Shown in pieces: positions 4,996-63,464 of a DNA stretch of 64,000 nucleotides. A program made the position numbers and the translations under genes. Below the pieces are notes generated by a model. It was not told where the DNA came from and searched no databases. It saw only the letters and a program-made list of their open reading frames with translations. This stretch comes from Elusimicrobiales bacterium (GTDB lineage Bacteria > Elusimicrobiota > Elusimicrobia > Elusimicrobiales > UBA9959). Position 1 is the stretch's first letter. Each line of letters starts with the position of its first letter. The stretch lies in the NCBI GenBank assembly GCA_026416895.1, contig JAOAEH010000029.1, forward strand, positions 228 through 64,227. Reading direction: 5' to 3'.

Positions 4996-5053
4996 AAGCT
5001 CAAAAAAAAATCAATTTTCTAAAAATTCACTTTAATATATCTGATAAATTATT

Positions 5054-17804: not shown

Positions 17805-18848
17805 TTATACTTTTGTCTCATAAACAATTTCGATTAATCGTTGTGATATTTTATATAATGGTATAATCTCATCTACTGCTCCTATTTCTATAGCTTCTTT
17901 AGGCATACCAAAAACAAGTGAAGTCTCTTCATCTTGTGCTATATTGTAAGCACCACTATTTTTCATATCTAACATTCCCTTAGCCCCATCCTTACCCATA
18001 CCTGTTAGTATCACTCCAATAGCATTTTTACCAACATTTTTAGCTACAGATCTAAAAAGGGGATCAACAGCCGGTTTCTGAAAATGCTCCATAGGTCCAT
18101 CTTTTATTTTTATATAATAATTTGCTCCACTTCTCTCAACAAGCATATGATAGCCACCAGGAGCAATAAAAGCTCTTCCCCTTACAATAAAATCACCATC
18201 CTCTGCTTCCTTTACCTCTAATTTACATATATCATTTAATCTTTTAGCAAAAGATGAGGTAAAACCTGGTGGCATATGCTGTACTATAACAATTCCTGGC
18301 ATATCAACTGGAAGTTTTGTTAAAATCTCTTCTAAGGCTAAGGTACCCCCAGTAGATGAACCTATAGCTATAATCTTTTGAGTGGTTTTAAAATCTGAAA
18401 TCTTTTTATCAGTTATTTTTTGAAAATTGTTTGTTAAATTAATCTTTTTAGTATCAAAACGAACTAATGAAGCATTTCTTATTGCAACTACCAACTTTTT
18501 GTTTATCTCCTGTGATGTAGCATAAGAAACAGGTTTGCCAATAATTTCAACTGCTCCAAGCTCTAATGCTCTTATTGCTGTCTCATTTATTTCACGTGTA
18601 AGAGAACTAAAAACTATAACTGGTTTTGGATAATATTTCATTAATTTCGATAAAAATGAAAGTCCATCCATTCTAGGCATTTCAAGATCTAAAACTATTA
18701 CATCAGGGTTTAATTCAATTATCTTATCTCTTGCAAAATATGGATCTATAGCAGTTCCCACAACTTTTATGTCACTATATTTCGAAAGCTCTTCTGTTAA
18801 TATTTTTCTGATTAATGCAGAATCATCTACAATCAAAACTTTAATCAT
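17805..18848 (-). CDS. cheB: Chemotaxis response regulator protein-glutamate methylesterase CheB
   Basis: REC (MIKVLIVDDSALIRK...VLDLEMPRMDG) plus methylesterase domain (GSSTGGTLALEEIL, VQHMPPGFT, GMGKDGA). Confidence 0.95.
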   Translation of the reverse strand: MIKVLIVDDSALIRKILTEELSKYSDIKVVGTAIDPYFARDKIIELNPDVIVLDLEMPRMDGLSFLSKLMKYYPKPVIVFSSLTREINETAIRALELGAVEIIGKPVSYATSQEINKKLVVAIRNASLVRFDTKKINLTNNFQKITDKKISDFKTTQKIIAIGSSTGGTLALEEILTKLPVDMPGIVIVQHMPPGFTSSFAKRLNDICKLEVKEAEDGDFIVRGRAFIAPGGYHMLVERSGANYYIKIKDGPMEHFQKPAVDPLFRSVAKNVGKNAIGVILTGMGKDGAKGMLDMKNSGAYNIAQDEETSLVFGMPKEAIEIGAVDEIIPLYKISQRLIEIVYETKV

Positions 18849-18854
18849 TTTTTA

Positions 18855-19268
18855 TTACTTATTTAAATTACAATATAAGTACACACTACCTTCTTCAAAA
18901 AATATTTTAGTTGAGCAAGAAAAATTGTAAGCATCTATATCAAGTTTTTCAACAAAAATAGGTGGAGATAATTTAAATCTCTTTTTATCTGTAAAAGTTT
19001 CAGAAAGTATATTACCACATATTATGTTTAATATCTCTTTTCCGCATTCTTTTATATCATTCTTATCATCACTAATAATAGAATTAATATACTCAAGTAA
19101 ATTTTTTTCTATTTTCATTATCATATAACCATTCTTCTCACCAGTGAAATCTATTTTAAAATTTAAAAATTCGTTTTCATTTTTGAGATTGTTTTCTATT
19201 GGAGTTAAAAATACTAAATTTGCAAAAACATTTGCTGCTGTTATATAAAGCTTGTCATCTTTTCCCAT
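18855..19268 (-). CDS. CheX/CheC-family-like chemotaxis protein (putative CheY-P phosphatase)
   Basis: ExxN motif in KECGKEILNIICGNIL with a Pro ~21 residues later (KLSPP), resembling the D/S-x3-E-x2-N-x22-P signature. ATG 19268 has SD GGAGGG. The ORF-track start 19340 would overlap cheY by 86 nt. Confidence 0.55.
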   Translation of the reverse strand: MGKDDKLYITAANVFANLVFLTPIENNLKNENEFLNFKIDFTGEKNGYMIMKIEKNLLEYINSIISDDKNDIKECGKEILNIICGNILSETFTDKKRFKLSPPIFVEKLDIDAYNFSCSTKIFFEEGSVYLYCNLNK

Positions 19269-19638
19269 ATATCCCTCCAGTGATTTCTGATATTTTAGAA
19301 CTAAAAAACTCTGGTGTAAATGGTTTATGAATAAAACCAACTATTTTGCCCTTTAAATATTCCATTGTATCATAGCTTTTTTCTGTTGATATAACAAGAA
19401 TAGGAATATCATTATAAACAGTATTTTTCTTTATTTCATCTATCATCTCTATACCATTCATAATAGGCATATTTATATCAGCAAGAATTAAATCGATCCA
19501 ATTCTTTTCTAATATATCTAATCCTTCTTTTCCATTACCAGCTTCAAAAAAAACACAATTATCGATATTAGACATCTCAATTGTTTTTTTAATCATTTTC
19601 CTCATAACAGGGCTATCATCAACTATGAGTATATTCAT
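19255..19638 (-). CDS. cheY: CheY-like single-domain response regulator
   Basis: MNILIVDDSPVMRKMI...LILADINMPIMNG...ISTE...IHKPF. Confidence 0.9.
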   Translation of the reverse strand: MNILIVDDSPVMRKMIKKTIEMSNIDNCVFFEAGNGKEGLDILEKNWIDLILADINMPIMNGIEMIDEIKKNTVYNDIPILVISTEKSYDTMEYLKGKIVGFIHKPFTPEFFSSKISEITGGIYGKR

Positions 19639-19647: not shown

Positions 19648-20154
19648 CTATTTAAAATTATTTACAAAACTCTGGTATAAAAAAAATTCCTCTGTAGGAG
19701 TTTTTACTATCACACTTCCATCTCTAAGCGAAAGCTTCATTGTTCTTGAAGAATATCCACCGAAATGAGTTGCTTTAAATATTAAAGAATATTTCCACAT
19801 AATTTTTTTTAGCATTATTACATTTTTCATTCCTATTTGGAAAAAATCTTGTCTATCTTTTGCTATTGGACTTGCTCCACCACAAGCGCATATTATGAGA
19901 TTTTTTTTATCTGAGCCTTCTTCAATAAATTTTTTTAAAGCTAACTCCATACCTGAATTAACAAACATAAAAGGATTAGAAATACACTTTTCTTTATGAT
20001 TATCACAATCATCTAACATAGCATGTAACATACCACCTTTTTTTAAAACTGAATCAAAAAAACTAACACCTACACAGCTTCCTAAAGCATAGGTTATTAT
20101 TTCCTCATCTTGATCTGATGAAAACTTGAAATCACCAACATTTACAGTTATCAT
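19648..20154 (-). CDS. cheD: Chemoreceptor glutamine deamidase CheD
   Basis: ITYALGSCVGVSFFD (catalytic Cys context), ...GMLHAML..., size 168 aa, located between cheR and cheY. Confidence 0.85.
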   Translation of the reverse strand: MITVNVGDFKFSSDQDEEIITYALGSCVGVSFFDSVLKKGGMLHAMLDDCDNHKEKCISNPFMFVNSGMELALKKFIEEGSDKKNLIICACGGASPIAKDRQDFFQIGMKNVIMLKKIMWKYSLIFKATHFGGYSSRTMKLSLRDGSVIVKTPTEEFFLYQSFVNNFK

Positions 20155-20158: not shown

Positions 20159-20965
20159 TTATACTTTTAGATATATAGCAGGTTGAATATATTTAAAGCA
20201 ATGTTTAATAGAGTTTAGACTTTCTGAATGACCTACAAACAGATAACCACCACTTCTGAGTATATTATAAAACCTATTAACAAGTGTTTCTTGTATCTGT
20301 TGAGTAAAATAAATCATTACATTTCTACAAAAAATTATATCAAAAGGTCCATTCATAACCCATTTATCTAATAAATTTAAAACAGCAAAACTTACAAGTT
20401 TTTTTATATCATCTTTTATTTTAAATAGCTTTTTCTTTGAATCAACAATTTCAAAATATTTTTCTATTTTTTCTTTAGGAATTAGTTTAATATCTTCAAA
20501 ATTATAAATAGCGTTTTTTGCTCTTTCAATCATACGTGATGAAATATCTGTGGCAAGAATTCTTTTATTGGATTCGTTTCCAAAAAATTCTTTTATTTCT
20601 ATTGCTATAGAATATGGTTCCTTACCATCCGAACAACCAGCACTCCATATAGTAAGATTTTTATTTTTATAGTTAGGAAATATATTGTTTTTCATGAACT
20701 CAAAATGTTTTATTTCTCTAAAAAAATCAGTTTTGTTAGTTGTAAGTATATCAATCATATTATAAAGTTCTTTTGTATCTTTCTCAATAAACTTAATATA
20801 ATCAATAAAATTACTAAAACCAAGTTCCAAAATTCTTTTTGAAAGTCGTGTTTTTACTAAATCTTTTTTAGAATCGTTTAGATAAATACCAGAGATAAAA
20901 TATAAAATTTCTTTTATCTTTTTAAACTCAAATTCTCTAATGATAACATCTTTTATATCAAACAT
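20159..20965 (-). CDS. cheR: Chemotaxis protein methyltransferase CheR
   Basis: TTNKTDFFRE, IWSAGCSDGKEPYSIAI, ATDIS, IFCRNVMIYF, GGYLFVGHSE. Confidence 0.95.
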   Translation of the reverse strand: MFDIKDVIIREFEFKKIKEILYFISGIYLNDSKKDLVKTRLSKRILELGFSNFIDYIKFIEKDTKELYNMIDILTTNKTDFFREIKHFEFMKNNIFPNYKNKNLTIWSAGCSDGKEPYSIAIEIKEFFGNESNKRILATDISSRMIERAKNAIYNFEDIKLIPKEKIEKYFEIVDSKKKLFKIKDDIKKLVSFAVLNLLDKWVMNGPFDIIFCRNVMIYFTQQIQETLVNRFYNILRSGGYLFVGHSESLNSIKHCFKYIQPAIYLKV

Positions 20966-22886
20966 TTGAAGTTACAAAAACATTTTCTTTCTTAAAATTT
21001 TCTTTATAAAACTTTATTATTCCTTGTGGGTCAATTATAACTGCTACTCTACCATCTCCAAGAATGCATCCTCCAAGTATCCCAGGAAAATTTTTAATAC
21101 CAGTTAATGGTTTTGCTACAACCTGTTGTTTTCCTATTACATCATCAACCATTAATGCTATTTTTCTTTCCTTATCTTTTACTATTACAAATATACCATC
21201 AATATTTTTATTTTCCTTAGAAAATATTTTTCTCATTCTAAATACTGGAAGTACTTCACCTCTTAAATGAAAAACTTCATCCTTTGAATTAATTGAATAT
21301 AGCTTGCCTTCTTCTTTTTTTGCTAATATATTTACCGCATTTACAGGAATTACATATATATCATCATCAACTTTAACAAGCATTCCATCTGTAACAGCCA
21401 TAGTTAAAGGAAATTTCAACCTAAACAACGTAAATTTCCCTTCTTGAGTTTTTATTTCTATCTTCCCTCTTAATGCTTCAACACCCTTTTTTACAACATC
21501 CATTCCTACACCTCTACCAGAAATATCACTTATCTTTTCTGCTGTAGAAAAACCTGGCAGGAATATTAAGTCATATATGTCATTTTCATTTAATTGAATA
21601 TTAGGGTCAATTAAGTTTTTTTCTATAGCTTTTTTAAGAATCTTTTCTTTATTTAACCCTCTACCATCATCCTCAATTTCAAAAATCACATTTCCATCCG
21701 CATTGTATGCTCTTAGATTTATAGTACCTTTAGGATCTTTCCCTTTATTTATTCTTTCTTCTTTAGATTCTATACCATGATCTATTGAGTTTCTAAGCAT
21801 ATGAACAAGCATTTCCTCAACGGAATTAATCATATTTCTATCTATTTCTGTATCTTCACCACTAACTTTTAAAATAATTTCTTTATTCATCTTTCTTGAT
21901 AAATCTCTTGCAAGTCTTTGCATTTTGTTAAACATATTTTTTATTGGAACCATCCTAAGTGACATACCAAGTTCTTGGAGTTCTCTGACTATTTTTTCAA
22001 GTTGATGTGCTTTTTTTATCATCTCATGATTTTTCGATTCTTCTATTTTTTGAAAAATCATCGAAAAAGTTATTGACATTTCACCTATTGTGTCTATTAA
22101 TCTATCCAGTTTTTCTATTTTAACTCTGATTGTTTTGTCTTCTGATTGTTCATCATAATTTTTATTAAATTGATTATCATCAATTTTATTTTCATTTTGT
22201 ATTGTTTCAACTTTCTCATCTTTTATTAAATCATCAGCCTTTTTAATTTTTTCTATTATATAATCATAACCATCTGGTTTTTTAACAGTGTAGTTATTAT
22301 TTTCATCAGAAATTATTCTTTCAATATCATCTAAAAGAAACTTTACTACATCTATTGATTTCAATGATATATCCCCTAATTTTTTTGTGAAAGGAATTTT
22401 CCCTTCTCTTATTTTTGATAGAAGGTTTTCTACATGATGAGAAAATTCTGATATAAAAGAAAGACCAATAAATGATGATGTGCCTTTTATAGTATGGAAA
22501 CATCTAAAAACCTTATTTATACTTTCTTTATCATTAGGGTTTGATTCAAGTTTTATAATAGCTTCTTCTGCATTTTGAATATTTTCTCTTGATTCTATTA
22601 TAAAATCTTTTATTAGTTCTCTATCTGAATCTTTTGGTATTTCAAAAGAAATACTATATTGTTGCTCATTAGATTTTACATTATCGTTTAAACTCTGCCA
22701 ATTTAGTTCATCAATAACTCTAAACACATCCTTTATATCTAAACTCCCCTCTTTTGCTTTTATTAATGAATCTAAGATTTTATTATACTGATGATTATCC
22801 GTTGATTTAAGAATATTTATTACTTTTTCTAAATCTTGTTTTGTTTTTATATCGTTGATTAAAGCTGTTATTTCCTGTAAATCCAT
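20958..22886 (-). CDS. cheA: Chemotaxis histidine kinase CheA (P1-P3-P4-P5; no evident P2; ~85-aa N-terminal extension)
   Basis: P1 FRCFHTIKGTSSF, P3 TIRVKIEKLDRLIDTIGE, P4 HMLRNSIDHGIE / DDGRGL / GRGVGMDVV, P5 CheW-like C-terminus. Confidence 0.95.
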   Translation of the reverse strand: MDLQEITALINDIKTKQDLEKVINILKSTDNHQYNKILDSLIKAKEGSLDIKDVFRVIDELNWQSLNDNVKSNEQQYSISFEIPKDSDRELIKDFIIESRENIQNAEEAIIKLESNPNDKESINKVFRCFHTIKGTSSFIGLSFISEFSHHVENLLSKIREGKIPFTKKLGDISLKSIDVVKFLLDDIERIISDENNNYTVKKPDGYDYIIEKIKKADDLIKDEKVETIQNENKIDDNQFNKNYDEQSEDKTIRVKIEKLDRLIDTIGEMSITFSMIFQKIEESKNHEMIKKAHQLEKIVRELQELGMSLRMVPIKNMFNKMQRLARDLSRKMNKEIILKVSGEDTEIDRNMINSVEEMLVHMLRNSIDHGIESKEERINKGKDPKGTINLRAYNADGNVIFEIEDDGRGLNKEKILKKAIEKNLIDPNIQLNENDIYDLIFLPGFSTAEKISDISGRGVGMDVVKKGVEALRGKIEIKTQEGKFTLFRLKFPLTMAVTDGMLVKVDDDIYVIPVNAVNILAKKEEGKLYSINSKDEVFHLRGEVLPVFRMRKIFSKENKNIDGIFVIVKDKERKIALMVDDVIGKQQVVAKPLTGIKNFPGILGGCILGDGRVAVIIDPQGIIKFYKENFKKENVFVTSNV

Positions 22887-22903: not shown

Positions 22904-22932
22904 AAAATAGGGGGCAGGTATTGCCCCCTATT
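22904..22932 (-). terminator. Intrinsic terminator after the hemerythrin-MCP gene
   Basis: The minus strand reads TAA-tagggggca-atacc-tgcccccta-TTTT. It is a GC-rich 9-11 bp stem that includes the stop codon, with a 5-nt loop and a short U tract. The cheA SD and ATG follow, so partial read-through is plausible. Confidence 0.6.
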
Positions 22933-25480
22933 AAAATGTTTTCAATACTGCTTCATTTTCAAGTGGAATTACAGAAGAAGGATCTAATTTTTGATTTTTT
23001 TGAATATTGTTTTGAATGATTTTATTTTGTTTATTAGATTTTTGTGTTGTAGAAGTTATTGCAGATGTTTTAAATTCTGAAATCATCTTCATAAGTTCCT
23101 GAGCTTGACTTGAAAGCTCTTGACTTGCGCTTGCTGATTCTTCACTGCTTGCTGCGTTTGATTGAGTTATTTGATTTAGTTGAGTTATACCTGTATTTAT
23201 CTGCTCTACTCCTTGTTCTTGTTGTTCACTTGCCGCTGTAATTTCAGATACAATCTGTGAAACTTTAATAGCTTGATTGCTTATCTCTTCTAACTTCTTT
23301 TTTACCTCCTCATTTATCTCAACCCCCTTTTGAGCATCTCTTAATGCCTCTTCAATTATATTTGCAGTATTTTTTGCAGCTTCAGCGCTTCTCATAGCAA
23401 GATTCCTAACTTCTTCTGCAACAACAGCAAAACCTTTACCAGCTTCTCCTGCTCTTGCTGCTTCAACTGCCGCATTTAGTGCTAAAAGGTTTGTTTGGAA
23501 TGCAATTTCATCTATTGTTTTTATAATCTTTGCAGTTTCATCGGATGATTTCTTAATTTTTTCAATCGCATCAGTAAGCTGTCTCATTTTTTCCATTCCT
23601 TCTTCACTAACGGTTTTTGCTTTCTCACTCATTACTTTGCCTTCTCTTGCATTTGCTGCGTTTTGTTTAGACATAGATGCTAATTCTTGGATGCTTGAAC
23701 TTATCTCCTCAATTGAACTAGCTTGTTCACTTGCTGCTTGTGCTAATGATTGAGCTCCAGAGCTTATCTGTGAAGCAGCAGAAGAAACCTGTTCAGTTGC
23801 ATATATCACCTGTTTTATGACTTCTTCAATGTTTGATAATGATTTGTTAATTGAATCTGCAAGCTTTTTGAAATCTCCCTTATAGTCTTTGGTTATTCTT
23901 TGTGTTAAGTCTTTCTGAGCAACTTTTTCCATTACATTTGATACTTCATTTATAGGTTCAACTATAGTATTTATAAGTTTATTTATATCCTCTACAATAT
24001 TTTTGAATTTACCTTGATGTTTTGAAGTATCAGTTCTTTGAGAAAGATTTCCATCAATAGCGCTTGAAATCAAAATATTTATATCTGAGATAAGAGTATT
24101 TATAGTATCTTTTAGTCTATTTAAAGCAGGAGCAATAAGATCAGCATCATCTTTTGGTATAAAGTTCCAGTTTAAATCACCTTTTGAAGTTTTTATTAAT
24201 GCATCAATAACCTCATTTTGTAAATAATCAGCAAATTTATCCATTTTCTTTGCAAGTTCCCCAATCTCATCGTTGGTATCTAAATTCATCCTTTTATCTA
24301 AATGTCCTTTTGAAAACTCATCCATCATCTCTACACCCTTTTTAAGCGGCTCAGTTATAAGTTTAGTTAGATAGAAAGATACAAAAACTGCAAATATAAA
24401 AGAACCAATCAAAAATGCCACAAGTATCACAAATGTTTCGTTTGCTAAATCAGTATTTGTGTCCGCTATTATGTTTCCTATATCTTTTGCAATTTTAGTA
24501 ATATTATCTGATAAGTTCAAAATACTTTCAATAATTACAGCACCTTGTGAAAGTTTAGCAATTATCTCTGCATTTGATTTATTATTTTTAATTAAAAGTA
24601 TTACATCAGATATAAGTTTAGTATATTCTTTTTCATCCTCTTGGAATTTTAACAAAATATCATAAATTTCTTTTCTTTTTTCTTCTATTTTATCTATCTT
24701 AGATAATTCTATTTTTTTATTTTTATATTCTATCTTCCAATAGTTATCCGGGCTATAGATAGATATTAATTCCTTTAAGCTTACTCCAATTTTTTGATTT
24801 TTTTCATCTACTTCTTTTATGTATTTTTCTGCATTGTTTGTTCCTTTATATAAAGCTGCTTGATAAATTTTTACTCTTCTCTCAGTTATAATTCTTATTG
24901 TATTTTCAACTTGTTGAGTCGGAATCATTCCCCGCTCGTAAAGAAATGTATCATATTTGTCTATTTTTCTAATATCATATAAACCAATTAAACCAACAAC
25001 TACAGTTATTATTGTTAAAGCACCAAAGCCAATCATAAGCTTTTTGCCAACTTTTAAGTTTTTCATAAAACCTCCTTTTTTATATAGAAAATTGTTATAA
25101 AAAATCCCATATTTTTTATCTTCCACATTTATGTGATTTAATAACCATTTTTTTAGAAAAACCATAATATCTGAAGATACTCCTATTGAGCTTTTATTAA
25201 GATTGTTTTCAAACTCAGTTACTTTATCTATAAAAACTTTATGGAGTTTTTTATGATTATGATAATCATTAAATTTTATAGATTTCTGAAATATTTCCTC
25301 TTCATTAAAATGATTTTGTGTGTATTCTTTAAGTTCATTTATAATTGACACAATTTCATCATATGAATTGTTAGAACCCATGAAATCATAAAGTTTATTT
25401 ATAATTCCTATAAGTTTTTTGTGTTGTTCGTCAAACCTTTTTATACCTACAGAGAAACTATCATTCCACTCTATAAACAT
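22931..25480 (-). CDS. Methyl-accepting chemotaxis protein with N-terminal hemerythrin domain (Hr-TM-periplasmic domain-TM-HAMP-MA)
   Basis: Residues 1-~130 carry the hemerythrin ligand pattern (FDEQHKKL; NHFNEEE; HNHKKLH; [10 protein letters not shown]). TM1 is [21 protein letters not shown] and TM2 is [26 protein letters not shown] is present, and the MA domain reads [36 protein letters not shown]. Confidence 0.9.
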
Positions 25481-25483
25481 AAA

Positions 25484-25894
25484 TTACCCTATTATATTTT
25501 TAGATTTTGCAAACTCACCGTATTTTTTATCTTCAACTTGAATATGCTTAGTAAGCCATTCCTTTAAAAAATTAATTATATCTACGCTCAAACCAATCTG
25601 TCCTCTTTTAAATCTACTTTCAAAATCCCCTACTTTTATGACAAATGCTTTATGTGAATTTATATGAGATTGAGATTCATTAAAATTTATCTCTTTGAAA
25701 AAATCTTCCTCATTTTTAAAATGTGTTTGAGAATATTTTATCAACTCAGAGATAATACCTCCCAATATATCCTTTGATTTTCCTTGTGACATTGCCAAAT
25801 TTAGATGGTTTATTAAAGAAACCAATTTTTTATGTTCTTGATCAAACTTATCTATTCCTACAGAAAGAGATTCATTCCAATTTATTAAATTCAT
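25484..25894 (-). CDS. Stand-alone bacteriohemerythrin
   Basis: 136 aa with FDQEHKKL; THFKNEE; HINSHKAF; KHIQVEDKKY. Clear paralogue of the MCP N-terminal domain. Confidence 0.9.
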   Translation of the reverse strand: MNLINWNESLSVGIDKFDQEHKKLVSLINHLNLAMSQGKSKDILGGIISELIKYSQTHFKNEEDFFKEINFNESQSHINSHKAFVIKVGDFESRFKRGQIGLSVDIINFLKEWLTKHIQVEDKKYGEFAKSKNIIG

Positions 25895-26385
25895 TTTACC
25901 TCCTCAGATATTTTTTTTAGTTTTTTTTCATCATCATTTGAAATTATTTTATCTATATCAAGAATTATCCTAACCTTTCCATTATTTTTGCTTATCCCAG
26001 TTATATATTCTGAATTAATTAAAGATAAAGTTGAAGAATCTTCAATTTCATCAGATGAAATATCAACAACTTCAGACACTCTATCTATAATTATTCCAAC
26101 AGATACATTTTTTGATCTAACAACTATAAAACATGTTTCATCTGTAAATTTTGCACCTTCCATAGAAAGCTTGAGTCTTAAATCTATAACAGGAATAATC
26201 CTTCCTCTTAAATTTATAACTCCTTTAATATAGGCAGGCATTCCAGGAACAGTGGTAATTGGCATAATTCCAATTATTTCTTGAACCTTCAATATTTCTA
26301 TTCCATATTCTTCTTTATCTAAAAAAAATGTTAAGTATTTACTTATTCTTTTAGTATCTTTTTTATTTTCTTGTGTAGTTTGCAT
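25891..26385 (-). CDS. cheW: Chemotaxis coupling protein CheW
   Basis: YLTFFLDKEEYGIEILKVQEII...VPGMPAYIKGVINLRGRIIPVIDLR. Confidence 0.92.
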   Translation of the reverse strand: MQTTQENKKDTKRISKYLTFFLDKEEYGIEILKVQEIIGIMPITTVPGMPAYIKGVINLRGRIIPVIDLRLKLSMEGAKFTDETCFIVVRSKNVSVGIIIDRVSEVVDISSDEIEDSSTLSLINSEYITGISKNNGKVRIILDIDKIISNDDEKKLKKISEEVK

Positions 26386-26387: not shown

Positions 26388-26876
26388 TTATACCTCCTCA
26401 AAGAGTTTTATTAACATCTTTTGATTATCAAAAGATTTAAAACACATTTTAGCTATCTCTTTCATTTTTGGAGTTGAATAGGTATAACTTTTTCCTTTAA
26501 TTACCGTAGGAAGAGATAAAGATAATTCCGTTTCAGATGGAAGTTTTGATTTTATATTTCCTGCTATCATATTTGCTAATTCACCAAAAGCATCACTAAC
26601 AGCTTCAGACCATTCATTTATCTCTTCCATCAACATAGCAGATGCAACTTTAATCGCAAATTTTTCATCTGTTTCGATAACAACAGTATATTTTTTCTTC
26701 CCACCAATACCTAAAAAAACACTTACTTCTACACTACCATTAAACTCTTCCTGACAGCTTGTTATTTCATTAGCAAGCATAGTCATAAATATATCACGTA
26801 CTACTGAGTCTATTTGATACGATATATCTTTAACACTAAATGTTTCTTTCATATTACATTCCATTTTATACTCCAT
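26388..26876 (-). CDS. cheX: CheX-type CheY-P phosphatase
   Basis: D-x3-E-x2-N-x~22-P signature in SDAFGELANMIAGNIKSKLPSETELSLSLP. Size and position next to cheY fit. Start may be M4 or M9. Confidence 0.75.
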   Translation of the reverse strand: MEYKMECNMKETFSVKDISYQIDSVVRDIFMTMLANEITSCQEEFNGSVEVSVFLGIGGKKKYTVVIETDEKFAIKVASAMLMEEINEWSEAVSDAFGELANMIAGNIKSKLPSETELSLSLPTVIKGKSYTYSTPKMKEIAKMCFKSFDNQKMLIKLFEEV

Positions 26877-27234
26877 TTATTAGTTTTGTTATTTTTTCTT
26901 GAATTGTTTCTTTTTTAAAAGGTTTTGTTATGAAATCAGACGCTCCAGCATTAATCGCTTTTTGTACATTTGAAATTTCATTTTCTGTTGTCAGCATTAT
27001 TATTGGAATTTTCTTCAAATTATCATCTGATTTTATATTTAATACCATATCATAACCATTCATCTCAGGCATATTCCAATCAGCCATTACAAGTGAATAC
27101 GAAGAGTCTGATTTTAATATATCTATTGCCTCTCTACCATTTGAAGCCTCTCCTACTTCATACCCAAGCTCCTTCATTATCCTTGAAACTATTACCCTCA
27201 TTGTTTTTGAATCATCAACAACAAGGATTTTCAT
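26866..27234 (-). CDS. cheY: CheY chemotaxis response regulator
   Basis: MKILVVDDSKTMRVIVSRIMKELGY...VMADWNMPEMNG...LTTE...ITKPF. Confidence 0.92.
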   Translation of the reverse strand: MKILVVDDSKTMRVIVSRIMKELGYEVGEASNGREAIDILKSDSSYSLVMADWNMPEMNGYDMVLNIKSDDNLKKIPIIMLTTENEISNVQKAINAGASDFITKPFKKETIQEKITKLINGV

Positions 27235-27248
27235 TTCTCCTCCTTAAC

Positions 27249-27632
27249 TTAAATACTTTCAATAATCTGTATTAGTTTTAATTCACTTTCTTTAAAATCT
27301 TTATCTTCCAATCCTTCATTTTTTATCTTCTCAAAGCTTATCTTTATATTTGAAATACACTCTTCTATAATTGGTATTTTATTTGAAGGTATATTTTTAT
27401 TTAAATTTTTAAGCTTTGTAAATAAATTTTCAATTTCCTTTAAAATCTTTGCTGTATTATCAAATCCCATCTGCATAAACATACCTTTCAATGTGTGCGT
27501 AGATATTCTTATTGCTTCTTGTGCAGAATAATCTCCTTTTTTTAAAGCCTCCATAGCTTGTTCAATATCTTTTATCCTTAATTGAGCCTCTTCCAAAAAT
27601 ATTGATAAAAATTCATTTGTTGCTTCCATCAT
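27249..27632 (-). CDS. Stand-alone Hpt phosphotransfer protein resembling the CheA P1 domain
   Basis: 127 aa with EFLSIFLEEAQLRIKDIE...IRISTHTLKGMFMQMGF...ENLF, i.e. the HTLKG phospho-His context and four-helix layout of CheA P1. Confidence 0.8.
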   Translation of the reverse strand: MMEATNEFLSIFLEEAQLRIKDIEQAMEALKKGDYSAQEAIRISTHTLKGMFMQMGFDNTAKILKEIENLFTKLKNLNKNIPSNKIPIIEECISNIKISFEKIKNEGLEDKDFKESELKLIQIIESI

Positions 27633-28021
27633 TCCTCCATATTAAGAGTTTTTTTAATTTTTTTGAGAAGAGAATCTTTATTTATTGGTTTTGTTATATA
27701 CCCTTGAGCTCCAGCTAAAAAAGCTCTATCTAATGAGTTTACATCATCAACCGCAGTACACATAAGAACAGGGATGTTTGATGTTTTCTTATTGTTTTTT
27801 AATTCAATTAAAGTCTCCCAACCATCTTTGTTTGGCATATTTGCATCTAAAAGAATCAAAGATGGCTCTTCTTTTTCTGCTATTTTTAATCCTTCTTCTC
27901 CGTCTTTTGCCATAAGTATTTCAAAGTTATCCTTAGGAATATGACTGGCTATGACAGCTCTTATAAAGCCGTCATCATCAACTATTAATATTTTTGGTTT
28001 CTTTTTGAATAGTCCAAACAT
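27629..28021 (-). CDS. Single-domain response regulator (receiver only)
   Basis: KILIVDDDGFIRAVI...ILLDANMPNKDG...MCTA...ITKPI. No SD is visible before ATG 28021. Confidence 0.88.
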   Translation of the reverse strand: MFGLFKKKPKILIVDDDGFIRAVIASHIPKDNFEILMAKDGEEGLKIAEKEEPSLILLDANMPNKDGWETLIELKNNKKTSNIPVLMCTAVDDVNSLDRAFLAGAQGYITKPINKDSLLKKIKKTLNMEE

Positions 28022-28135: not shown

Positions 28136-28162
28136 ATATCCAAATATTTTTAAAAAACTTTA
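28136..28162 (-). promoter_or_regulatory. Sigma-28 (FliA)-like promoter upstream of the REC-Hpt-cheY-cheX-cheW-hemerythrin-MCP operon
   Basis: Minus strand reads TAAA (28162-28159, overlapping the TAA stop of the 157-aa gene), a 15-nt spacer gttttttaaaaatat, then TTGGATAT (28143-28136). It shares TAAAGTT with the flgM and 62573 promoters. The -10 element is weaker. Confidence 0.4.
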
Positions 28163-28633
28163 ACTCATTTTTTCTACAACCCTCAAAAATAATCCATTTT
28201 TAGTAATATCATCATGAAAATTTCTTACAAAGTTTGCAGTTTTTTCCCCTAAAGCTTTTGTTATCTCTTTTATATTAATTTTATTTTTGTTGCTATTACA
28301 ACTTAATGAAATACCATATATCATATATTTTTTGGCTAAAAAAATTATATTTTTTAGTATTTCTGAATCTGTTTCAATATCTATTTTCCATAATACTTTT
28401 ATCTTTTTATTTTTTAACATAGATATTATCCCAAACATTTCAGTATTTTTTATAAAATTACTTAAATAAATGAATCTAAAATTTCTTTTTGCAAAAATCT
28501 CTTCTATAGGTTTTAGATATATTTCTATCTCATTATATTCACAAAAATTTATAATCTCGCTTATTTTTAAGGGTTTTAATAAAACTTTAGCATCTAGTTC
28601 AATCTTGCTCATACCTATTTTATATATCAGCAT
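28160..28633 (-). CDS. Hypothetical protein (157 aa)
   Basis: Long ORF in the operon orientation with no motif I can assign. Start may be M8. Confidence 0.4.
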   Translation of the reverse strand: MLIYKIGMSKIELDAKVLLKPLKISEIINFCEYNEIEIYLKPIEEIFAKRNFRFIYLSNFIKNTEMFGIISMLKNKKIKVLWKIDIETDSEILKNIIFLAKKYMIYGISLSCNSNKNKINIKEITKALGEKTANFVRNFHDDITKNGLFLRVVEKMS

Positions 28634-28687: not shown

Positions 28688-30766
28688 TTATTCATTTAAG
28701 GCCTCTGAATATTTTAAATTGAATAAATTAATATTTGAAAGCATCTTCATTTCAATATCTTTTATTTTAATTGGATTCCCTTCAAAATAATTTTTTTCTA
28801 ACTCTATTAAATCTATATTTTGAGGGATATTCTCTCTTGAATTCAATTTATATTTTTTAATGATAAAATTTTTAAACTCATCAGCAGAATTTTCAAATTT
28901 TAAAAAATATTGAGGTAGATAATGATATTTATCAAGAGAATGACCGTAGATAAAATCATAATTTATTTTTTCATTTAATAATAAAAGATTTGTAAAATAT
29001 GAAAATTTATTTTTAGGTATTATTTGAAAAGAAGTCATTATTCTGCCTTTTTGATCATATAAACAAGAAAAAACATTCGTATTTTTAGCCCATAAAGCAA
29101 TTCTATTGCTAAATATAAAAGAATTACTAGATAAATAAATTGCTTTTTCATATCCCATTACATCTGCAACTGATATTCCAATTAAATATCCCCTCCAAAA
29201 ATCAGCAACTATATTAGAAGAATTAGTAATTATTTTTTCTTTAAATGAAAGAAGTGAAATTTCTTTTTCTTTCAATATACATGGGAATACATAACCTTTT
29301 TCATCTAAAGATATTTTTTCTACATGGGATAAAGGATATACTTGTTTAAAATATGACAAAAAAACATGTTCTGATGTATTATCTAATATAACTAAATTAT
29401 CAAAAAAATCTATTTCTTTATTGATTTTTAAATGCCAATCTACCCATAAAACTAAAGCTTCATAATCTTCTACTGTTTTAATCTCTGATAAAGAAAAAAG
29501 TAGAGTTTTTTTCTTGGGTTTATCTACTTTTTTATTTATACCAAGAGTTCTAAAAAGAAAGTTTTTAGCTGAATATAAGTCATCCTGCGTTAAAACATCA
29601 ATAGAATTTTCAGTTGTGCCTCTACAATTTGGAGTTAAATGAGAAGTTTCTTGTATTCTTGGAACTTTTAAAACTTCAGCTAAAGCATACGGAGATGATT
29701 GATTACCTATAAATACTTTACACCCTTTTATTACTGAAGCAAGCTCTAAGAAATTGGATGTTGGATAATAAAATACTCTACTACGAAGAGGATAAATCTT
29801 TACAAATCTTTCATATTCTTCTTTGGTTCCTACAAAACATACTTTTATATCTTCATCTAATCCGTCAATTAAGTACCTATAATCAAATATTGTATTTCTA
29901 TATCTTTCTGTTCGGGATATAACAACTTCCGCAACGTCTAGAGGCTCTACATCTAATTCTAAATTTGATATATTTGGTTTTATAAAAATTTTTTCAAAAT
30001 TTGTTATAGATAAATGATTATTTTCCATATCTCTAACTCCTTCTCTAAAAAAATCTAAAAATATATCTGCATCATCTATATCTATATTTTTCTTTACTTC
30101 TACATAAAAACCTTGTTTTTCTAAAAAAGGTTTTAATGATAATGCAGTTTTTTCACTCATTTTTGTTTCATAAAATCCGTGCGGTTTTAATATTATTTTT
30201 TTTAACCCAAGTTCCTTAAATCCTGCAATTGAGTATATAATATCTCCTAAATCACCTCCATGAACTACAGAGGAGGGTGGCAATTCACTAAATAATGATT
30301 TATATATAGTTTTAAATAAAAATTCTCTCAATTCTTTAGAAATATTTGAAATATTAGATAAAAATATTTTCTGAGGTCCTGTATATTGGAAAACTTCACA
30401 AGAAGAAAAATCATATGACAAAAAAGGTAGATTTTTTTGACTTAAAGCTTTTATATAATCCTTCAAGGTTTTTAAATTTATTAATCCCTTAAAGATCTCA
30501 CATGTCAAATGATTTTTCGTTATATATATTAAATCATCAAATACACCGAATGAGGTTTTAAATAAAACAATATCATTTTGAATTCTATTAAAAGCTCCTC
30601 CACAACATACCCAATCATCTGAAAGTATTAGCAAATTATCTTCTTTTGATTTTTCTAATATAAAGTTATCTTCAAATCTAATTTTAAAACTATATATATC
30701 TGAGGCTCTTTCCCAAATTTTTCTGTAGTATTGATTTGGATTTGAATTAAGAATAACTATTTCCAT
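28688..30766 (-). CDS. Large cytoplasmic multidomain protein with a central GT9 (heptosyltransferase)-like glycosyltransferase domain
   Basis: VVHGGDLGDIIYSIAGFKELG... and ...TSNFLELASVIKGCKVFIGNQSSPYALAEVLKVPRI match the GT9 pattern (lGDvi...; tsl.el.ali..a.l.vgnDSGpmHlAaAlg.P). The N-terminal (~160 aa) and C-terminal (~290 aa) regions are unassigned. No TM segment. Confidence 0.5.
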   Translation of the reverse strand: MEIVILNSNPNQYYRKIWERASDIYSFKIRFEDNFILEKSKEDNLLILSDDWVCCGGAFNRIQNDIVLFKTSFGVFDDLIYITKNHLTCEIFKGLINLKTLKDYIKALSQKNLPFLSYDFSSCEVFQYTGPQKIFLSNISNISKELREFLFKTIYKSLFSELPPSSVVHGGDLGDIIYSIAGFKELGLKKIILKPHGFYETKMSEKTALSLKPFLEKQGFYVEVKKNIDIDDADIFLDFFREGVRDMENNHLSITNFEKIFIKPNISNLELDVEPLDVAEVVISRTERYRNTIFDYRYLIDGLDEDIKVCFVGTKEEYERFVKIYPLRSRVFYYPTSNFLELASVIKGCKVFIGNQSSPYALAEVLKVPRIQETSHLTPNCRGTTENSIDVLTQDDLYSAKNFLFRTLGINKKVDKPKKKTLLFSLSEIKTVEDYEALVLWVDWHLKINKEIDFFDNLVILDNTSEHVFLSYFKQVYPLSHVEKISLDEKGYVFPCILKEKEISLLSFKEKIITNSSNIVADFWRGYLIGISVADVMGYEKAIYLSSNSFIFSNRIALWAKNTNVFSCLYDQKGRIMTSFQIIPKNKFSYFTNLLLLNEKINYDFIYGHSLDKYHYLPQYFLKFENSADEFKNFIIKKYKLNSRENIPQNIDLIELEKNYFEGNPIKIKDIEMKMLSNINLFNLKYSEALNE

Positions 30767-31128
30767 TAGTTAACTAACTCCTTTTGTTGTTTTTTTAAAA
30801 TAGAAGTAAGTTGTGAATATGGTATATTAAGCATAAAAGATATTTCTTTAAGTTTTAAGCCACTTTTTCTCATTTTATCTAAAATTTCATAATTCAACCT
30901 CAATTGATTTACATTCGGTGTATTATTAATCTCCTCAAGTTTTTTATTTAATTTTTTTATTTCGCTTTCAATAACTTCAATCTTAGATAATATTTGCTTG
31001 TTATCTTCTTCAAATATCATATGGTCTATAAAATTTTTAAGTCCTTTTTTTCCAGTTTTTTTCTCGAAATATTTATATAAAATAAAAATAATACCTATTC
31101 CTAACGATAACATTATTCCACTTATCAT
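30766..31128 (-). CDS. Membrane-anchored small protein with coiled coil and C-terminal HTH-like segment
   Basis: N-terminal TM ISGIMLSLGIGIIFILY, a coiled-coil centre, and a C-terminal GLKLKEISFMLNIPYSQLTSILKKQ resembling sigma region 4 / LuxR-type HTH. The start overlaps the fliA stop by 4 nt. Confidence 0.45.
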   Translation of the reverse strand: MISGIMLSLGIGIIFILYKYFEKKTGKKGLKNFIDHMIFEEDNKQILSKIEVIESEIKKLNKKLEEINNTPNVNQLRLNYEILDKMRKSGLKLKEISFMLNIPYSQLTSILKKQQKELVN

Positions 31129-41547: not shown

Positions 41548-43065
41548 CTATTCTAAAAGGATTGCTCTTACAAGTTCTTCAATAGTGAAAGGTTTTTTTA
41601 TACACATTAAATTATTTTTTTCAAAGAAAGAAAAAAGATTAGTATCCAATATATCAGCGGTAACAAAAATAAATTTAGTTTTATTTTTATACTTTAAATA
41701 CAAATCTATACCATTACCATCTGGTAAAACAACATCACAGATAACTAAATCATAAGATTGAATATTATAATTTTCTATTTCCACAATTCTTTTTGTTATA
41801 TCAACTTTGTTCTCTTTTGAAAAAAATTTTAATAAAAACTCTGTAAAATTCTCATCATCATCAACAATTAATATATTTTTATTTCTAATTTTTGATTCTA
41901 TTTTTTTATTAATATTGGTAGTTACTTTAGTTATGACATCTTGAGTAGTTGGTAAAGAAATTATAAAACGTGCTCCTTTTTTTTCTTGCTTGTCAACCAT
42001 AATCTCCCCATCATGCTCTTTAATTATTTTTTTTGCTATATATAAACCCAAACCCGTTCCACCATTCTTTTTTGTTGAAAAAAATGGTTCAAATATCTTG
42101 TCTACAATCTGAGGTTCTATAACCCTTCCAGTATTAAATATTTCAATAATAATATTCTTTTTATTAGAATAACATTTAATTTCTAAATATCTGTCTTTAG
42201 GTGGTATTTGTATAAGTTCATCTATAGAATTTATTATTATATTGTAAAAAACTTGTTGTAATTCACTAAAGTAACCTAACACTGTAAGATTTTCTCCTTG
42301 AAAACTTATGTTTATTTTTTCTATATTATTTTTTCTAAAGTGATAGTTAAGGAATAATAAAACACTTTCTATTAACTCTTTTATTTCTATATATTCTTTT
42401 TCCATATTTTTCTTTCTAACAAATTTAAGCAAATTTTCAGTTATATTTTTACACTGTTGAGCTGCTTTAGTTACTATTTTAAGATCTTGTCTAATATCAT
42501 CTTCTAGCGTCTCATCTTCTATCAAAATATTTGCAATTCCATATATACTTGCTAAAGGATTATTTAAATCATGAGCAATTCCGGATATGAGTTTGCCCAA
42601 AACATCTAACCTTTGATAATGAATTAAATCCTTTTCTTTTGACATTATAAGTTTTTTCTGTTCCTCTATTTTTGATATATCTTCAATCACTAATATATTG
42701 ATTTTGTCACCATTTAAATGATAAGGTATTAAGGTATATTTGCAATGTATTTCAACTCTATTAGATCTAACATTTCTAAAAACAACAGAATTTGTAAAAA
42801 AAGATTTTGCAGATGTTTCAAGAAATTTCTTAAACTCTTTATATGAAAATATATCACCAAATATAATTTTAAATCCACTCTTTATAACATCATTTCTTTC
42901 AAATCCAAAAACTTCATTAAAAGAATCATAATCTATATAAATAATATCCAGATCATCATCTAATATTACTAAGACTTTGTTTAATGAGCCAATCACAACT
43001 TTGGCTAAATCAAATTTTTCATCAATAAACCTTTTCTCTAAAAATGCTTTATTCTTTTTATTCAT
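41548..43065 (-). CDS. Hybrid sensor histidine kinase (PAS, HisKA, HATPase_c, receiver)
   Basis: LDVLGKLISGIAHDLNNPL, YNIIINSIDEL, GGTGLGL, then REC (ILIVDDDENF...LVICDVVLPDGNG...IKKPF). Confidence 0.9.
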   Translation of the reverse strand: MNKKNKAFLEKRFIDEKFDLAKVVIGSLNKVLVILDDDLDIIYIDYDSFNEVFGFERNDVIKSGFKIIFGDIFSYKEFKKFLETSAKSFFTNSVVFRNVRSNRVEIHCKYTLIPYHLNGDKINILVIEDISKIEEQKKLIMSKEKDLIHYQRLDVLGKLISGIAHDLNNPLASIYGIANILIEDETLEDDIRQDLKIVTKAAQQCKNITENLLKFVRKKNMEKEYIEIKELIESVLLFLNYHFRKNNIEKINISFQGENLTVLGYFSELQQVFYNIIINSIDELIQIPPKDRYLEIKCYSNKKNIIIEIFNTGRVIEPQIVDKIFEPFFSTKKNGGTGLGLYIAKKIIKEHDGEIMVDKQEKKGARFIISLPTTQDVITKVTTNINKKIESKIRNKNILIVDDDENFTEFLLKFFSKENKVDITKRIVEIENYNIQSYDLVICDVVLPDGNGIDLYLKYKNKTKFIFVTADILDTNLFSFFEKNNLMCIKKPFTIEELVRAILLE

Positions 43066-43071
43066 AATAAA

Positions 43072-43102
43072 AAACCTTTATATCAGAAGGTTTACCTCTG
43101 AT
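43072..43102 (-). promoter_or_regulatory. Two mutually exclusive hairpins in the kinase leader, one sequestering the SD
   Basis: Read as mRNA, hairpin B is atcagagg-taaa-cc(t)tctgat (43102-43082) and hairpin A is aaacctt-ctgatata-aaggttt (43093-43072). The 3' arm of A contains the only SD-like AAGG, 9-12 nt before ATG 43065. Confidence 0.3.
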
Positions 43103-43111
43103 CATATTTAT

Positions 43112-43139
43112 ATATTATCAGAAAAATTTATTTTTTCAA
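43112..43139 (-). promoter_or_regulatory. Candidate sigma-70-type promoter for the 505-aa hybrid kinase
   Basis: Minus strand reads TTGAAA (43139-43134), a 16-nt spacer, then TAATAT (43117-43112). The AT-rich context makes false positives likely. Confidence 0.3.
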
Positions 43140-43156
43140 GTCCCTTTTAATTATTA

Positions 43157-43723
43157 TTACTTAAACAAATTACAAACAAATTCGATTATCTTATTAAATT
43201 CGACAGGTTTTCTAAAATATCCATCTATTAATCTTTTAATCTCTTTTATATCCTCGCCATCTGCTTCCCCAGTAATTACTATAAACCTTATTGATGATAA
43301 ATTTTTATCTTCTTTAACTTTTTTTATAAGAGTAATACCATCTATTTTTGGCATTACTATATCTATCAACATTAAATCTGGTTTATTATTACCTAAAGCT
43401 ATCAAAGCACTGTAACCATCTTCATAATCGTAAATCTCAAATATATTATTTTTTTTAGAAAAAGCTTTAACCAAAGATTTTCTAAACACCTCATCATCAT
43501 CAACTATAAATATTTTTTTCTTTTCAGCAACTAATTCTTGAGGAATTGGGAAATTATATTCTTTTAAAAAATCTAATAAATCTTGCTTAGTTACTCTGTG
43601 ATGTCCTCCAGGAGTAACATAAGACTTAAGTTTTCCTTGATTAATCCAATTAATTACTGTTGAAGGATATACTCCACATATTTTACTTATTTCAAAAGTA
43701 GAAAAACCTTTCTTTTTAAACAT
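43157..43723 (-). CDS. Response regulator with N-terminal excisionase/MerR-type HTH and C-terminal receiver
   Basis: FSTFEISKICGVYPSTVINWINQGKLKSYVTPGGHHRV (HTH_17-like), then REC (KIFIVDDDEVFRK...LMLIDIVMPKIDG...VITGE...FRKPV). Confidence 0.8.
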   Translation of the reverse strand: MFKKKGFSTFEISKICGVYPSTVINWINQGKLKSYVTPGGHHRVTKQDLLDFLKEYNFPIPQELVAEKKKIFIVDDDEVFRKSLVKAFSKKNNIFEIYDYEDGYSALIALGNNKPDLMLIDIVMPKIDGITLIKKVKEDKNLSSIRFIVITGEADGEDIKEIKRLIDGYFRKPVEFNKIIEFVCNLFK

Positions 43724-58898: not shown

Positions 58899-59588
58899 TT
58901 AATCTTCGAATTTATATCCAAATCCAACTATGTTTTTTATACAATCTTTAGCTTGTTTTAGCTTTTTTCTCAAATTTGATATATGAACTTCAACAGTATG
59001 TTTATCACTTTCAGTAAGAGAATTATAGTTCCATATTCTTTCTAACAAATAGTTTACGCTAAATACTTTACCTGGATTTTTTACAAGAAGGGTCAAAATT
59101 TCGTATTCTTTTTTTGTTAATTTTATCCTTTCATTTTGAACAAAAACTTCTTTTTTTTCTTCATCTATTTTAATTATTCCTCTTTCTAAAACTTCATAAG
59201 AGAAATTTCTTCCGGCATTTGCATTTATAATTTTTCTAATTTTAGCCTCTAATATCCTATATGAGAAAGGTTTCACTAAAAAATCATCTATACCTTTCTC
59301 ATAACCTTTAATCTGAATATTTTCATCAAAAATTTCTCCAGACATCAAGATAAAAGGAATATTTTTTGTTTCTTTACACATTCTAATTATTGAAAAAATA
59401 GTTATTCCATCTATAGATGGCATTTTAACATCAGAAACTATTACTGAAGGAGATAATTCTTTTGCCATTGCTATACCTATAGACGAATCAAGTGCATAAT
59501 AAGAATAAAAATCTCTTTTTCTTAAAAATTCAGCAAGAGATTTTGCAAAATCTTTATCATCATCAATTATTAATACTTTCTCTTTCAT
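58899..59588 (-). CDS. OmpR/PhoB-family response regulator (REC + winged helix)
   Basis: KVLIIDDDKDFAKSL...VIVSDVKMPSIDG...LVKPF; winged helix LTKKEYEILTLLVKNPGKVFS...HISNLRKKL...VGFGYKF. ATG 59588 has SD GGAGGTG. Confidence 0.9.
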   Translation of the reverse strand: MKEKVLIIDDDKDFAKSLAEFLRKRDFYSYYALDSSIGIAMAKELSPSVIVSDVKMPSIDGITIFSIIRMCKETKNIPFILMSGEIFDENIQIKGYEKGIDDFLVKPFSYRILEAKIRKIINANAGRNFSYEVLERGIIKIDEEKKEVFVQNERIKLTKKEYEILTLLVKNPGKVFSVNYLLERIWNYNSLTESDKHTVEVHISNLRKKLKQAKDCIKNIVGFGYKFED

Positions 59589-63463: not shown

Positions 63464-63464
63464 T

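Follow-up and report, generated by a model that had tools for sequence, protein, structure and literature searches.

A free-standing CheA-P1-type Hpt protein between two receivers in the chemotaxis operon of an uncultured Elusimicrobiales bacterium: a possible second P1 domain of the pathway

What does a free-standing histidine phosphotransfer (Hpt) protein do in a chemotaxis operon that also encodes a complete CheA kinase? The question is raised by a contig of an uncultured Elusimicrobiales bacterium (GenBank assembly GCA_026416895.1, contig JAOAEH010000029.1, positions 228 to 64,227). The stretch analysed, referred to here as the window, comprises 64,000 nucleotides with a G+C content of about 25%, and this 64-kb window is the part of the genome that is visible here. 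Within it, the Hpt gene lies between the genes of two single-domain receivers (REC), REC130 and CheY122. A preliminary description made from the sequence alone had proposed that this Hpt collects phosphate from four hybrid kinases of the window and passes it to CheY-like receivers. Because the three-gene unit is conserved across related genomes, however, it most likely belongs to chemotaxis signalling itself and is not a relay shared by distant hybrid kinases. We tentatively regard the free Hpt as a second P1 domain of the flagellar chemotaxis pathway in a lineage of Elusimicrobiota, one that would be phosphorylated in trans by CheA and would have a receiver set of its own. The three genes and the cheX gene next to them are as follows (aa, amino acids).

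27629-28021, minus strand: REC130, single-domain receiver of 130 aa (Pfam PF00072, E 7e-27)
27249-27632, minus strand: Hpt, stand-alone, CheA-P1 type, 127 aa from the first ATG (Pfam PF01627, E 8e-10)
26866-27234, minus strand: CheY122, CheY-type receiver of 122 aa (Pfam, E 8e-31)
26388-26876, minus strand: CheX phosphatase 1 (Pfam CheX, E 1e-21)

The placement given in the preliminary description, between a receiver-only protein and CheY and upstream of cheX and cheW, is thus accurate in every coordinate. The stop codon of rec130 and the start of the Hpt gene overlap as TGATG. A second ATG, at 27629, yields an Hpt of 126 aa and is preceded by a GGAGG just upstream, inside the end of rec130; it is probably the true start. 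CheY122 has a strong Shine-Dalgarno sequence of its own, 14 bp past the Hpt stop, and its last 11 bp are shared with cheX, the gene that completes the conserved block of four (REC-Hpt-CheY-CheX).

The identification of the 127-aa protein as a detached Hpt of the CheA-P1 type, first made from the sequence alone, was confirmed. It scores 39.2 bits against Pfam PF01627 (cut-off 24.6 bits), its top match in NCBIfam is the CheA N-terminus, and its top sequence matches among solved structures are to Thermotoga maritima CheA P1 (2ld6, E 3e-8; 1tqg). An AlphaFold2 (AF2) model built from 22 orthologues shows five helices, with a predicted local distance difference test score (pLDDT) of 94 and a predicted template modelling score (pTM) of 0.87. 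When this model was searched with Foldseek, CheA P1 domains took ranks 1-7 and 9-11, rank 8 being a redesigned four-helix bundle. The template modelling (TM) scores were 0.83 for T. maritima CheA P1 (2ld6), 0.83 for Salmonella CheA P1 (1i5n) and 0.79 for Rhodobacter sphaeroides CheA3-P1 (3kyj/3kyi). Relay-type Hpts fit clearly worse, with 0.52 for HptB, 0.56 for the Shewanella Hpt and 0.45-0.6, at large root mean square deviation, for Ypd1 and the AHPs.

The STHTLKG motif noticed earlier is genuine. The predicted phospho-accepting residue is His46, which lies within STHTLKGM, so that the HxxKG signature reads His46-Thr-Leu-Lys49-Gly50. None of the 22 orthologues (26-56% identity) deviates at His46 or Gly50, and at position 49 they have either Lys or Arg. 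The full set of invariant residues (E7, F12, E15, R19, R42, H46, T47, G50, M51, Q54, M55, G56, K65, E68 and F71) clusters on the face of helices A, B and C around His46. Lys49 (His+3), Gly50 (His+4), Lys65 and Glu68 (His+22) lie on this His face, and all but Lys49 are invariant. We take His+22 to be the position of the catalytic Glu of P1 (Glu70 in Escherichia coli, Glu67 in T. maritima). In the work of Mourey (2001) and Quezada (2005), this Glu is reported to hydrogen-bond the His and to be required if ATP is to phosphorylate it. The P1 and CheY comparisons drew on reference sequences from T. maritima and E. coli, that of the T. maritima P1 being checked in part against its PDB match. Because of its P1 sequence and fold matches and its conserved His face including Glu68, the 27249-27632 product is a functional-looking free P1 domain, as far as sequence and model can tell. 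It is a separate open reading frame of 126-127 aa, not the N-terminal domain of a CheA kinase, in all loci compared, and no fusion to a kinase was found among the 150 exhaustive-search matches listed or in the loci examined.

A word-index search with the single Hpt sequence returned only the query itself, and the orthologues came from exhaustive and profile searches. The exhaustive search gave 401 matches at an E-value of 1e-3 or better, mostly multi-Hpt ChpA-like kinases with few stand-alone orthologues, whereas the profile search returned about 22 stand-alone Hpt proteins of 126-134 aa. All members of this family come from metagenomes or metagenome-assembled genomes, and every labelled one is assigned to Elusimicrobiota. 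Members score 156-205 bits against the family profile, P1 domains of the Thermotoga/Firmicutes CheA type 60-79 bits, and the P1 domains of the CheA proteins in the same operons 24-37 bits. An origin of the Hpt as a recent duplicate of its cognate CheA P1 was rejected, both on these scores (24-37 bits for own-operon P1s versus 60-79 bits for the Thermotoga/Firmicutes type) and on an identity of 23% between the two. A literature search found no paper describing an Elusimicrobiota REC130-Hpt-CheY module.

Eight distinct loci were compared: the window, L001, L002, L004 (= L005 and L011), L006, L007, L010 and L012. In 8/8, the genes for REC130, Hpt, CheY and CheX keep their order and orientation, and a complete CheA is encoded with them. 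The window, L001, L004, L006 and L010 are of type A, with the order REC-Hpt-CheY-CheX-CheW-(hemerythrin)-MCP-CheA-CheR-CheD-REC-CheX-CheB (MCP, methyl-accepting chemotaxis protein); in L001 the hemerythrin gene comes after CheX2. In these five of the eight loci no non-Che kinase was found within 10 kb of the module, CheA being the sole HATPase match there. The genes upstream of the module in L010 are not flagellar, which indicates that the module accompanies the che operon rather than the flagellar genes.

L002 (labelled Elusimicrobiaceae), L007 and L012 are of type B, with the order REC-a, REC130, Hpt, CheY, CheX, CheA, CheW, MCP; the REC-Hpt-CheY-CheX block is kept although the rest of the operon is rearranged. 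Orthodox sensor kinases are encoded directly upstream on the same strand in all three (L002 170-8257; L007 2756-8952; L012 26-2566). The upstream kinases include PAS-HK, REC-PAS-HisKA_2 and Tll0287-HisKA proteins, the adjacent ones being orthodox or equipped with an N-terminal receiver, and their families differ (HisKA_2 in L007, HisKA in L002 and L012). A REC-GGDEF protein is encoded upstream in L002 and L012. The only hybrid kinase in the related loci is a protein of 651 aa in L002, about 5 kb upstream of the module.

REC-a is a tandem paralogue of REC130 (39-44% identity), encoded directly upstream of it (L002 8271-8684; L007 9156-9554; L012 2603-3034). Its acidic Mg2+ pocket is lost, DDD being replaced by NSD, NNN or NGS, and the conserved Thr or Lys is also gone in some copies; REC-a is likely a pseudo-receiver. 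That it might be the detached receiver of a hybrid kinase (a 'Rosetta stone') was considered and rejected in view of its kinship to REC130 and the decay of its acidic pocket.

Two further small Hpt proteins were encountered in these searches. L007 encodes a second one (1314-1610, 98 aa), which is not P1-like and weakly resembles the LuxU and BarA Hpts (E 0.011 and 0.45); the REC-Hpt-CheY block follows about 8 kb downstream of it. L015 (contig SDBU01017202.1, positions 805-5955), from an unrelated lineage, holds a Flp/Tad-pilus-like locus (a REC-ParA/TadZ-like protein, a TPR protein and two proteins with Flp pilin domains) followed by a stand-alone P1-like Hpt of 129 aa and two single-domain receivers. 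No CheA was found on this 7.6-kb contig.

In the window, the operon continues on the minus strand beyond cheX in the following order.

25891-26385, minus strand: CheW (Pfam, E 2e-41)
25484-25894, minus strand: hemerythrin (Pfam)
22931-25480, minus strand: hemerythrin-4HB-HAMP-MCP chemoreceptor (Pfam)
20958-22886, minus strand: CheA, 642 aa (Pfam and sequence inspection)
20159-20965, minus strand: CheR (Pfam)
19648-20154, minus strand: CheD (Pfam)
19255-19638, minus strand: REC127, third single receiver (Pfam)
18855-19340, minus strand: CheX2 as listed, the true start probably being later (Pfam)
17805-18848, minus strand: CheB (Pfam)

The genes are tightly packed, with intergenic gaps of -11 to +44 bp except for the cheX2 reading frame, which as mechanically listed overlaps rec127 by 86 bp.

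The CheA of this operon has an N-terminal extension of about 85 aa, then P1, followed by P3, P4 and P5. Only about 35 residues separate P1 from P3, which leaves no room for a P2 domain; in a CheA without P2, a P1 must itself be the docking site of the receivers. Pfam detects a single Hpt in the protein, and no receiver. Its own P1 is canonical (FHTIKG, with His131, Lys134, Gly135, His150 and, at His+22, Glu153), and an alignment of CheA N-termini shows that this domain is intact and strongly conserved in the orthologues, too. The operon CheA is the candidate kinase for the free Hpt, which shares 23% identity with the CheA P1. The preliminary description called the Hpt an 'orphan'; since the CheA beside it is complete and keeps a canonical P1, the Hpt is better called 'extra'. 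For the same reason a strict analogy to the CheA3/CheA4 pair of R. sphaeroides, which had been offered as an alternative, fails. The N-terminal extension (residues 1-85 in the window) varies from about 85 to 186 aa among orthologues and is poorly conserved, and was dismissed as a conserved docking domain on account of both its variable length and its poor conservation.

All three single-domain receivers of the operon (REC130, CheY122 and REC127) have a full DD/D/T(S)/K site. In REC130 it consists of DDD14-16, Asp59, Thr89 and Lys111. CheY122 shows the DD pair, Asp52 in DWNMP, Thr82 (TTE) and the Lys in DFITKPF, and its top NCBIfam match is CheY PRK10610 (E 2e-31), where its 108.8 bits fall short of the 189 set as equivalog cut-off. 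As a single receiver with these motifs in a che operon, the 26866-27234 product is predicted to be a CheY. REC130 is the best-conserved protein of the operon across the loci compared, whereas the identity of the Hpt to its orthologues is among the lowest. Identities between window proteins and their orthologues are as follows.

REC130: L006 89%, L004 83%, L001 84%, L007 71%, L002 72%
CheY122: L006 89%, L004 67%, L001 68%, L007 64%, L002 64%
CheB: L006 88%, L004 72%, L001 65%
FlgE: L006 91%, L004 65%, L001 66%
CheA: L006 74%, L004 54%, L001 57%, L007 45%, L002 44%
Hpt: L006 55%, L004 36%, L001 33%

That REC130 is more conserved than CheY suggests that, of the two additions, REC130 and not the Hpt is central to function. 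Its family is tight, at 69% identity or more, with a steep fall to 56% or less outside the clade, and none of the distant homologues (41% identity or less) adjoins an Hpt. The sequence of REC130 places it among generic receivers (PleD, RpaA, YycF, Spo0F) and not with CheY, and it has a conserved N-terminal extension, MFGLFKKKPK. Its alpha1 region is DDDGF(I/M)R, against DDSxxMR or DDSxxIR in CheY122, REC127 and CheB. The alpha1 region sets P1 specificity in the CheA3P1-CheY6 complex (PMC2817712), and the difference is consistent with two client sets.

From the domain identities, the P1-type fold and active site, the operon structure, the synteny and the conservation described above, we infer the phosphotransfer steps and the direction of flow as follows. 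The Hpt, the translationally coupled REC130 and the adjacent CheY122 and CheX would form a conserved phosphoryl-exchange node. Acting in trans, the P4 domain of CheA would phosphorylate the free Hpt at His46, with the tethered P1 of CheA as a competing substrate, and the phosphorylated Hpt (Hpt~P) would serve a receiver set other than that of the tethered P1. REC130 would be a dedicated client of Hpt~P, and a reversible exchange between Hpt~P and CheY122 is conceivable. A single kinase would in this way gain a second output or a buffer branch, and the node would correspond in function to an 'unbundled' CheA with several Hpt domains and a receiver.

Several observations favour such a second P1 channel. 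The Hpt is of the P1 type and not of the relay type, its His face is intact and conserved, and its link to CheA is constant. REC130 and Hpt are tightly coupled, with the TGATG overlap and a Shine-Dalgarno sequence inside rec130, while the distinct alpha1 region of REC130 and the lack of a P2 domain in CheA point in the same direction. There are also precedents for the single steps. P1 domains detached from their kinase remain functional in trans, and some che operons devote a gene of its own to the Hpt (PMC10782961). CheA3-P1 receives its phosphate in trans from CheA4, and P1 on its own is enough for transfer to be specific (PMC2817712). More than 90% of the multi-Hpt CheAs also carry a CheY-like receiver, a possible sink or phosphoryl source for the other Hpts (PMC10782961), although the role of the multiple Hpts in ChpA is still unclear (PMC12632253).

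Other observations weigh against a second P1 channel. CheA keeps a highly conserved P1, so that a second substrate is not needed for signalling. Given the 23% identity to the CheA P1 and the lower profile score on own-operon P1s, compatibility of the free Hpt with P4 is only putative. The REC-Hpt-REC order and the hub-like conservation of REC130 fit a relay in the style of Spo0F/Spo0B/Spo0A equally well. Orthodox sensor kinases stand directly upstream in 3/3 type-B loci, and the Tad-pilus locus L015 combines a P1-like Hpt and two receivers on a contig where no CheA was found.

These points lead to the first alternative, a relay in the Spo0F/Spo0B/Spo0A style acting on the motor, in which REC130 receives phosphate from at least one non-Che sensor kinase and hands it on, by way of the Hpt, to CheY122, so that non-chemoreceptor signals would set the level of CheY~P in parallel to CheA. 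Stated as a His-Asp-His-Asp relay derived from P1, it would give REC130 the role of a Spo0F-like hub, supplied with phosphate by non-chemoreceptor kinases and perhaps also by CheA, with the free P1 as the donor to CheY. The REC-Hpt-REC gene order with its translational coupling would suit this, as would a receiver that is conserved like a hub with many partners (83-84% identity where CheY has 67%) and that groups with PleD, RpaA, YycF and Spo0F rather than with CheY. The sensor kinases directly upstream on the same strand in L002, L007 and L012, the REC-GGDEF protein in L002 and L012, and the Hpt with two receivers in L015 speak for it as well. Yet no kinase lies near the module in the five type-A loci, including the window, and the adjacent kinases of the type-B loci belong to different families, which looks like a variable neighbourhood and not like a conserved partner. 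The Hpt keeps the catalytic Glu specific to P1, and four steps would be slow for flagellar chemotaxis. On balance such a relay is rather unlikely, both as a feed from sensor kinases and in its hub form; if it exists, swimming would integrate PAS or redox kinase signals in parallel to the chemoreceptor array.

Less probable still is a phosphate sink or buffer, in which CheY122~P would transfer its phosphoryl group back to the free Hpt and the Hpt would unload onto REC130, so that signals would end faster and the P1 of CheA would be left free. The Hpt is suitably placed between two receivers for this, and the genes of CheY122 and REC127 are each followed by a cheX, while that of REC130 is not. 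Transfer between P1 and CheY is reversible, sinks are known in systems with several CheYs, and CheA-fused receivers act as sinks (PMC10782961, PMC4214558). The two CheX phosphatases already present in the operon would make a sink look redundant, however, and for a mere sink, the highest conservation in the operon would be surprising.

The link to the four hybrid kinases concerns the following genes, all of which were confirmed by Pfam to end in a receiver and to lack an Hpt.

331-4995, plus strand: hybrid kinase, multi-PAS-HisKA-HATPase-REC, without Hpt (Pfam)
5054-6703, plus strand: hybrid kinase, HisKA-HATPase-REC, without Hpt (Pfam)
41548-43065, minus strand: hybrid kinase, PAS-HisKA-HATPase-REC, without Hpt (Pfam)
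60757-62541, minus strand: 'pseudo-kinase' of 594 aa, HisKA-degenerate ATPase-REC, without Hpt (Pfam and sequence inspection)

That the receivers of these four kinases donate to the free Hpt, which would then phosphorylate CheY-like receivers, is very improbable: although they share the large flagellar and chemotaxis contig with the Hpt, and although no other free Hpt is present in the window to serve them, 13.5 kb of DNA with flagellar genes separate the module from the nearest hybrid kinase, and the Hpt family is tied to REC130, CheY and CheX beside a complete CheA in 8/8 loci. Co-occurrence of the Hpt with hybrid kinases, proposed earlier as a check, was not seen within 10 kb in L001, L004, L006 and L010, the single case being the one in L002. 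No convincing orthologues of the window's hybrid kinases adjoin the module elsewhere; those in L002, L007 and L012 were considered as such and rejected, the similarity being generic to PAS and HisKA domains. The fold of the free Hpt is of the P1 type, whereas the known relays from hybrid kinases use Hpts of the LuxU, BarA, HptB or Ypd1 type, and a small LuxU/BarA-like Hpt does occur in a related genome (L007). Many hybrid kinases function without an Hpt. Pfam scans of all but three of the window's open reading frames of at least 110 aa, together with six-frame scans for the Hpt-family profile and for the motif H[STA][LIVMF][KR][GS], found no Hpt other than this one and the CheA P1. The other two roles suggested at the outset, that of a phosphate sink and that of a trans-substrate of CheA, are no less compatible with the evidence.

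The label of pseudo-kinase given to the 60757-62541 product holds: the His of HisKA is present, and the ATPase domain is degenerate, lacking the N-box Asn, the G1 and G2 boxes and DxGxG. Its gene directly follows that of a REC-GGDEF protein (62597-63478, minus strand) and precedes genes for a glycosyltransferase and an OmpR-type regulator (58899-59630). The 41548-43065 kinase is paired with an HTH_17-REC regulator (43157-43723, minus strand) between blocks of flagellar genes, and the 41548-43723 pair may be a two-component system regulating flagellar genes.

Compared with known systems, the free Hpt shares with the CheA P1 of T. maritima (2ld6, 1tqg) and Salmonella (1i5n) the five-helix bundle, the pattern HT(L/I)(K/R)GM...MG(F/Y), the Lys at His+3, the Gly at His+4 and the Glu at His+22. 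It differs from these in being a separate protein of 126-127 aa that coexists with a P1-bearing CheA, and in having an invariant Lys at His+19, where CheA P1 has His. The CheA3/CheA4 system of Rhodobacter (Cereibacter) sphaeroides and the che operons with a separate Hpt gene resemble the locus in that P1 and kinase core are products of different genes of one operon (PMC2817712; PMC10782961), and trans-phosphorylation and P1-determined receiver specificity have been demonstrated for CheA3/CheA4 (PMC2817712). In a split CheA, however, the kinase core lacks P1, whereas the CheA here is complete and an extra receiver accompanies the extra P1.

CheAs with multiple Hpts and a receiver (Pseudomonas aeruginosa ChpA; the Tfp, ACF and F4 classes) likewise combine more than one Hpt per kinase with an additional receiver (PMC10782961, PMC12632253), and ChpA-like multi-Hpt proteins are the commonest distant matches of the free Hpt. 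Here, by contrast, Hpt and receiver are separate small proteins and are not fused, so that the resemblance to ChpA is functional only, and the system is flagellar (cheY, cheX, cheB, cheR and cheD beside flagellar genes) and not one of type IV pili or alternative function. With the relay Hpts (P. aeruginosa HptB, Vibrio LuxU, the BarA/ArcB Hpt and yeast Ypd1) the protein has in common that it is a small helical His-phosphotransfer protein that could in principle take phosphate from a receiver; it differs from them by TM scores of 0.45-0.6, its P1 signatures and the lack of a conserved hybrid-kinase linkage. The Spo0F-Spo0B-Spo0A relay of Bacillus provides the same REC-His-phosphotransferase-REC logic and order, with a highly conserved single-domain receiver as possible hub, but Spo0B is dimeric and DHp-like and not a monomeric P1 bundle, and the output here would be a CheY and not a transcription factor.

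The system, all parts of which are familiar, is best described as a lineage-specific variant of known chemosensory architectures with multiple Hpts and a receiver. Why some chemosensory kinases carry several Hpt domains and a receiver is poorly understood (PMC12632253, PMC10782961). The Elusimicrobiota lineage splits this list of parts into one complete CheA, one extra P1 and one extra receiver within a flagellar pathway, and, since the small proteins are separately encoded, each step could be reconstituted and mutated alone. Should non-Che kinases feed the node, it would offer a defined route for two-component signals into motor control; should it be only a second P1 channel or a sink, it would be a modest, lineage-specific elaboration of a well-known pathway.

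Regarding the setting of the operon, a Pfam scan covering every open reading frame of at least 110 aa except three showed that the contig is a single large flagellar and chemotaxis locus. The window encodes FlhB/FliR/FliP/FlhA, MotAB, FlgE/FlgD, FliI/FliH, FliA and flagellins, and further FliD/FliS/FliW, FlgK/FlgI/FlgH and rod proteins. One more gene lies upstream of rec130.

28160-28633, minus strand: orf157, candidate first gene of the operon (orthologues upstream of REC130)

Orthologues of orf157 are found directly upstream of REC130 in all other type-A loci (L001, L004 (= L011), L006 and L010), also in L010 with its lack of flagellar neighbours, and the che operon may begin with it. The protein has no Pfam or PDB match, and a single-sequence AF2 model was unusable (pLDDT 36). 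A scan for promoters and terminators between 26.8 and 31.2 kb was uninformative in this AT-rich DNA, giving 30 promoter-like sites versus 32 expected.

The operon contains two pairs of a receiver and a CheX, CheY122-CheX (26388-27234, minus strand) and REC127-CheX2 (18855-19638, minus strand), CheX2 being much less conserved (33-38% identity at greater distances). It also contains a hemerythrin and an MCP with an N-terminal hemerythrin domain (22931-25894, minus strand), which suggests sensing of O2/redox state or iron; the pair is kept in L006, and the free hemerythrin alone in L010 and L001. Between fliA and the che operon, two proteins without a Pfam match, of 692 aa and 120 aa, are encoded (28688-31128, minus strand). 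The 120-aa protein has orthologues in L006 (61%) and L001 (28%) only, and the 692-aa protein has orthologues in L001, L004 and L006 at about 40-63% identity.

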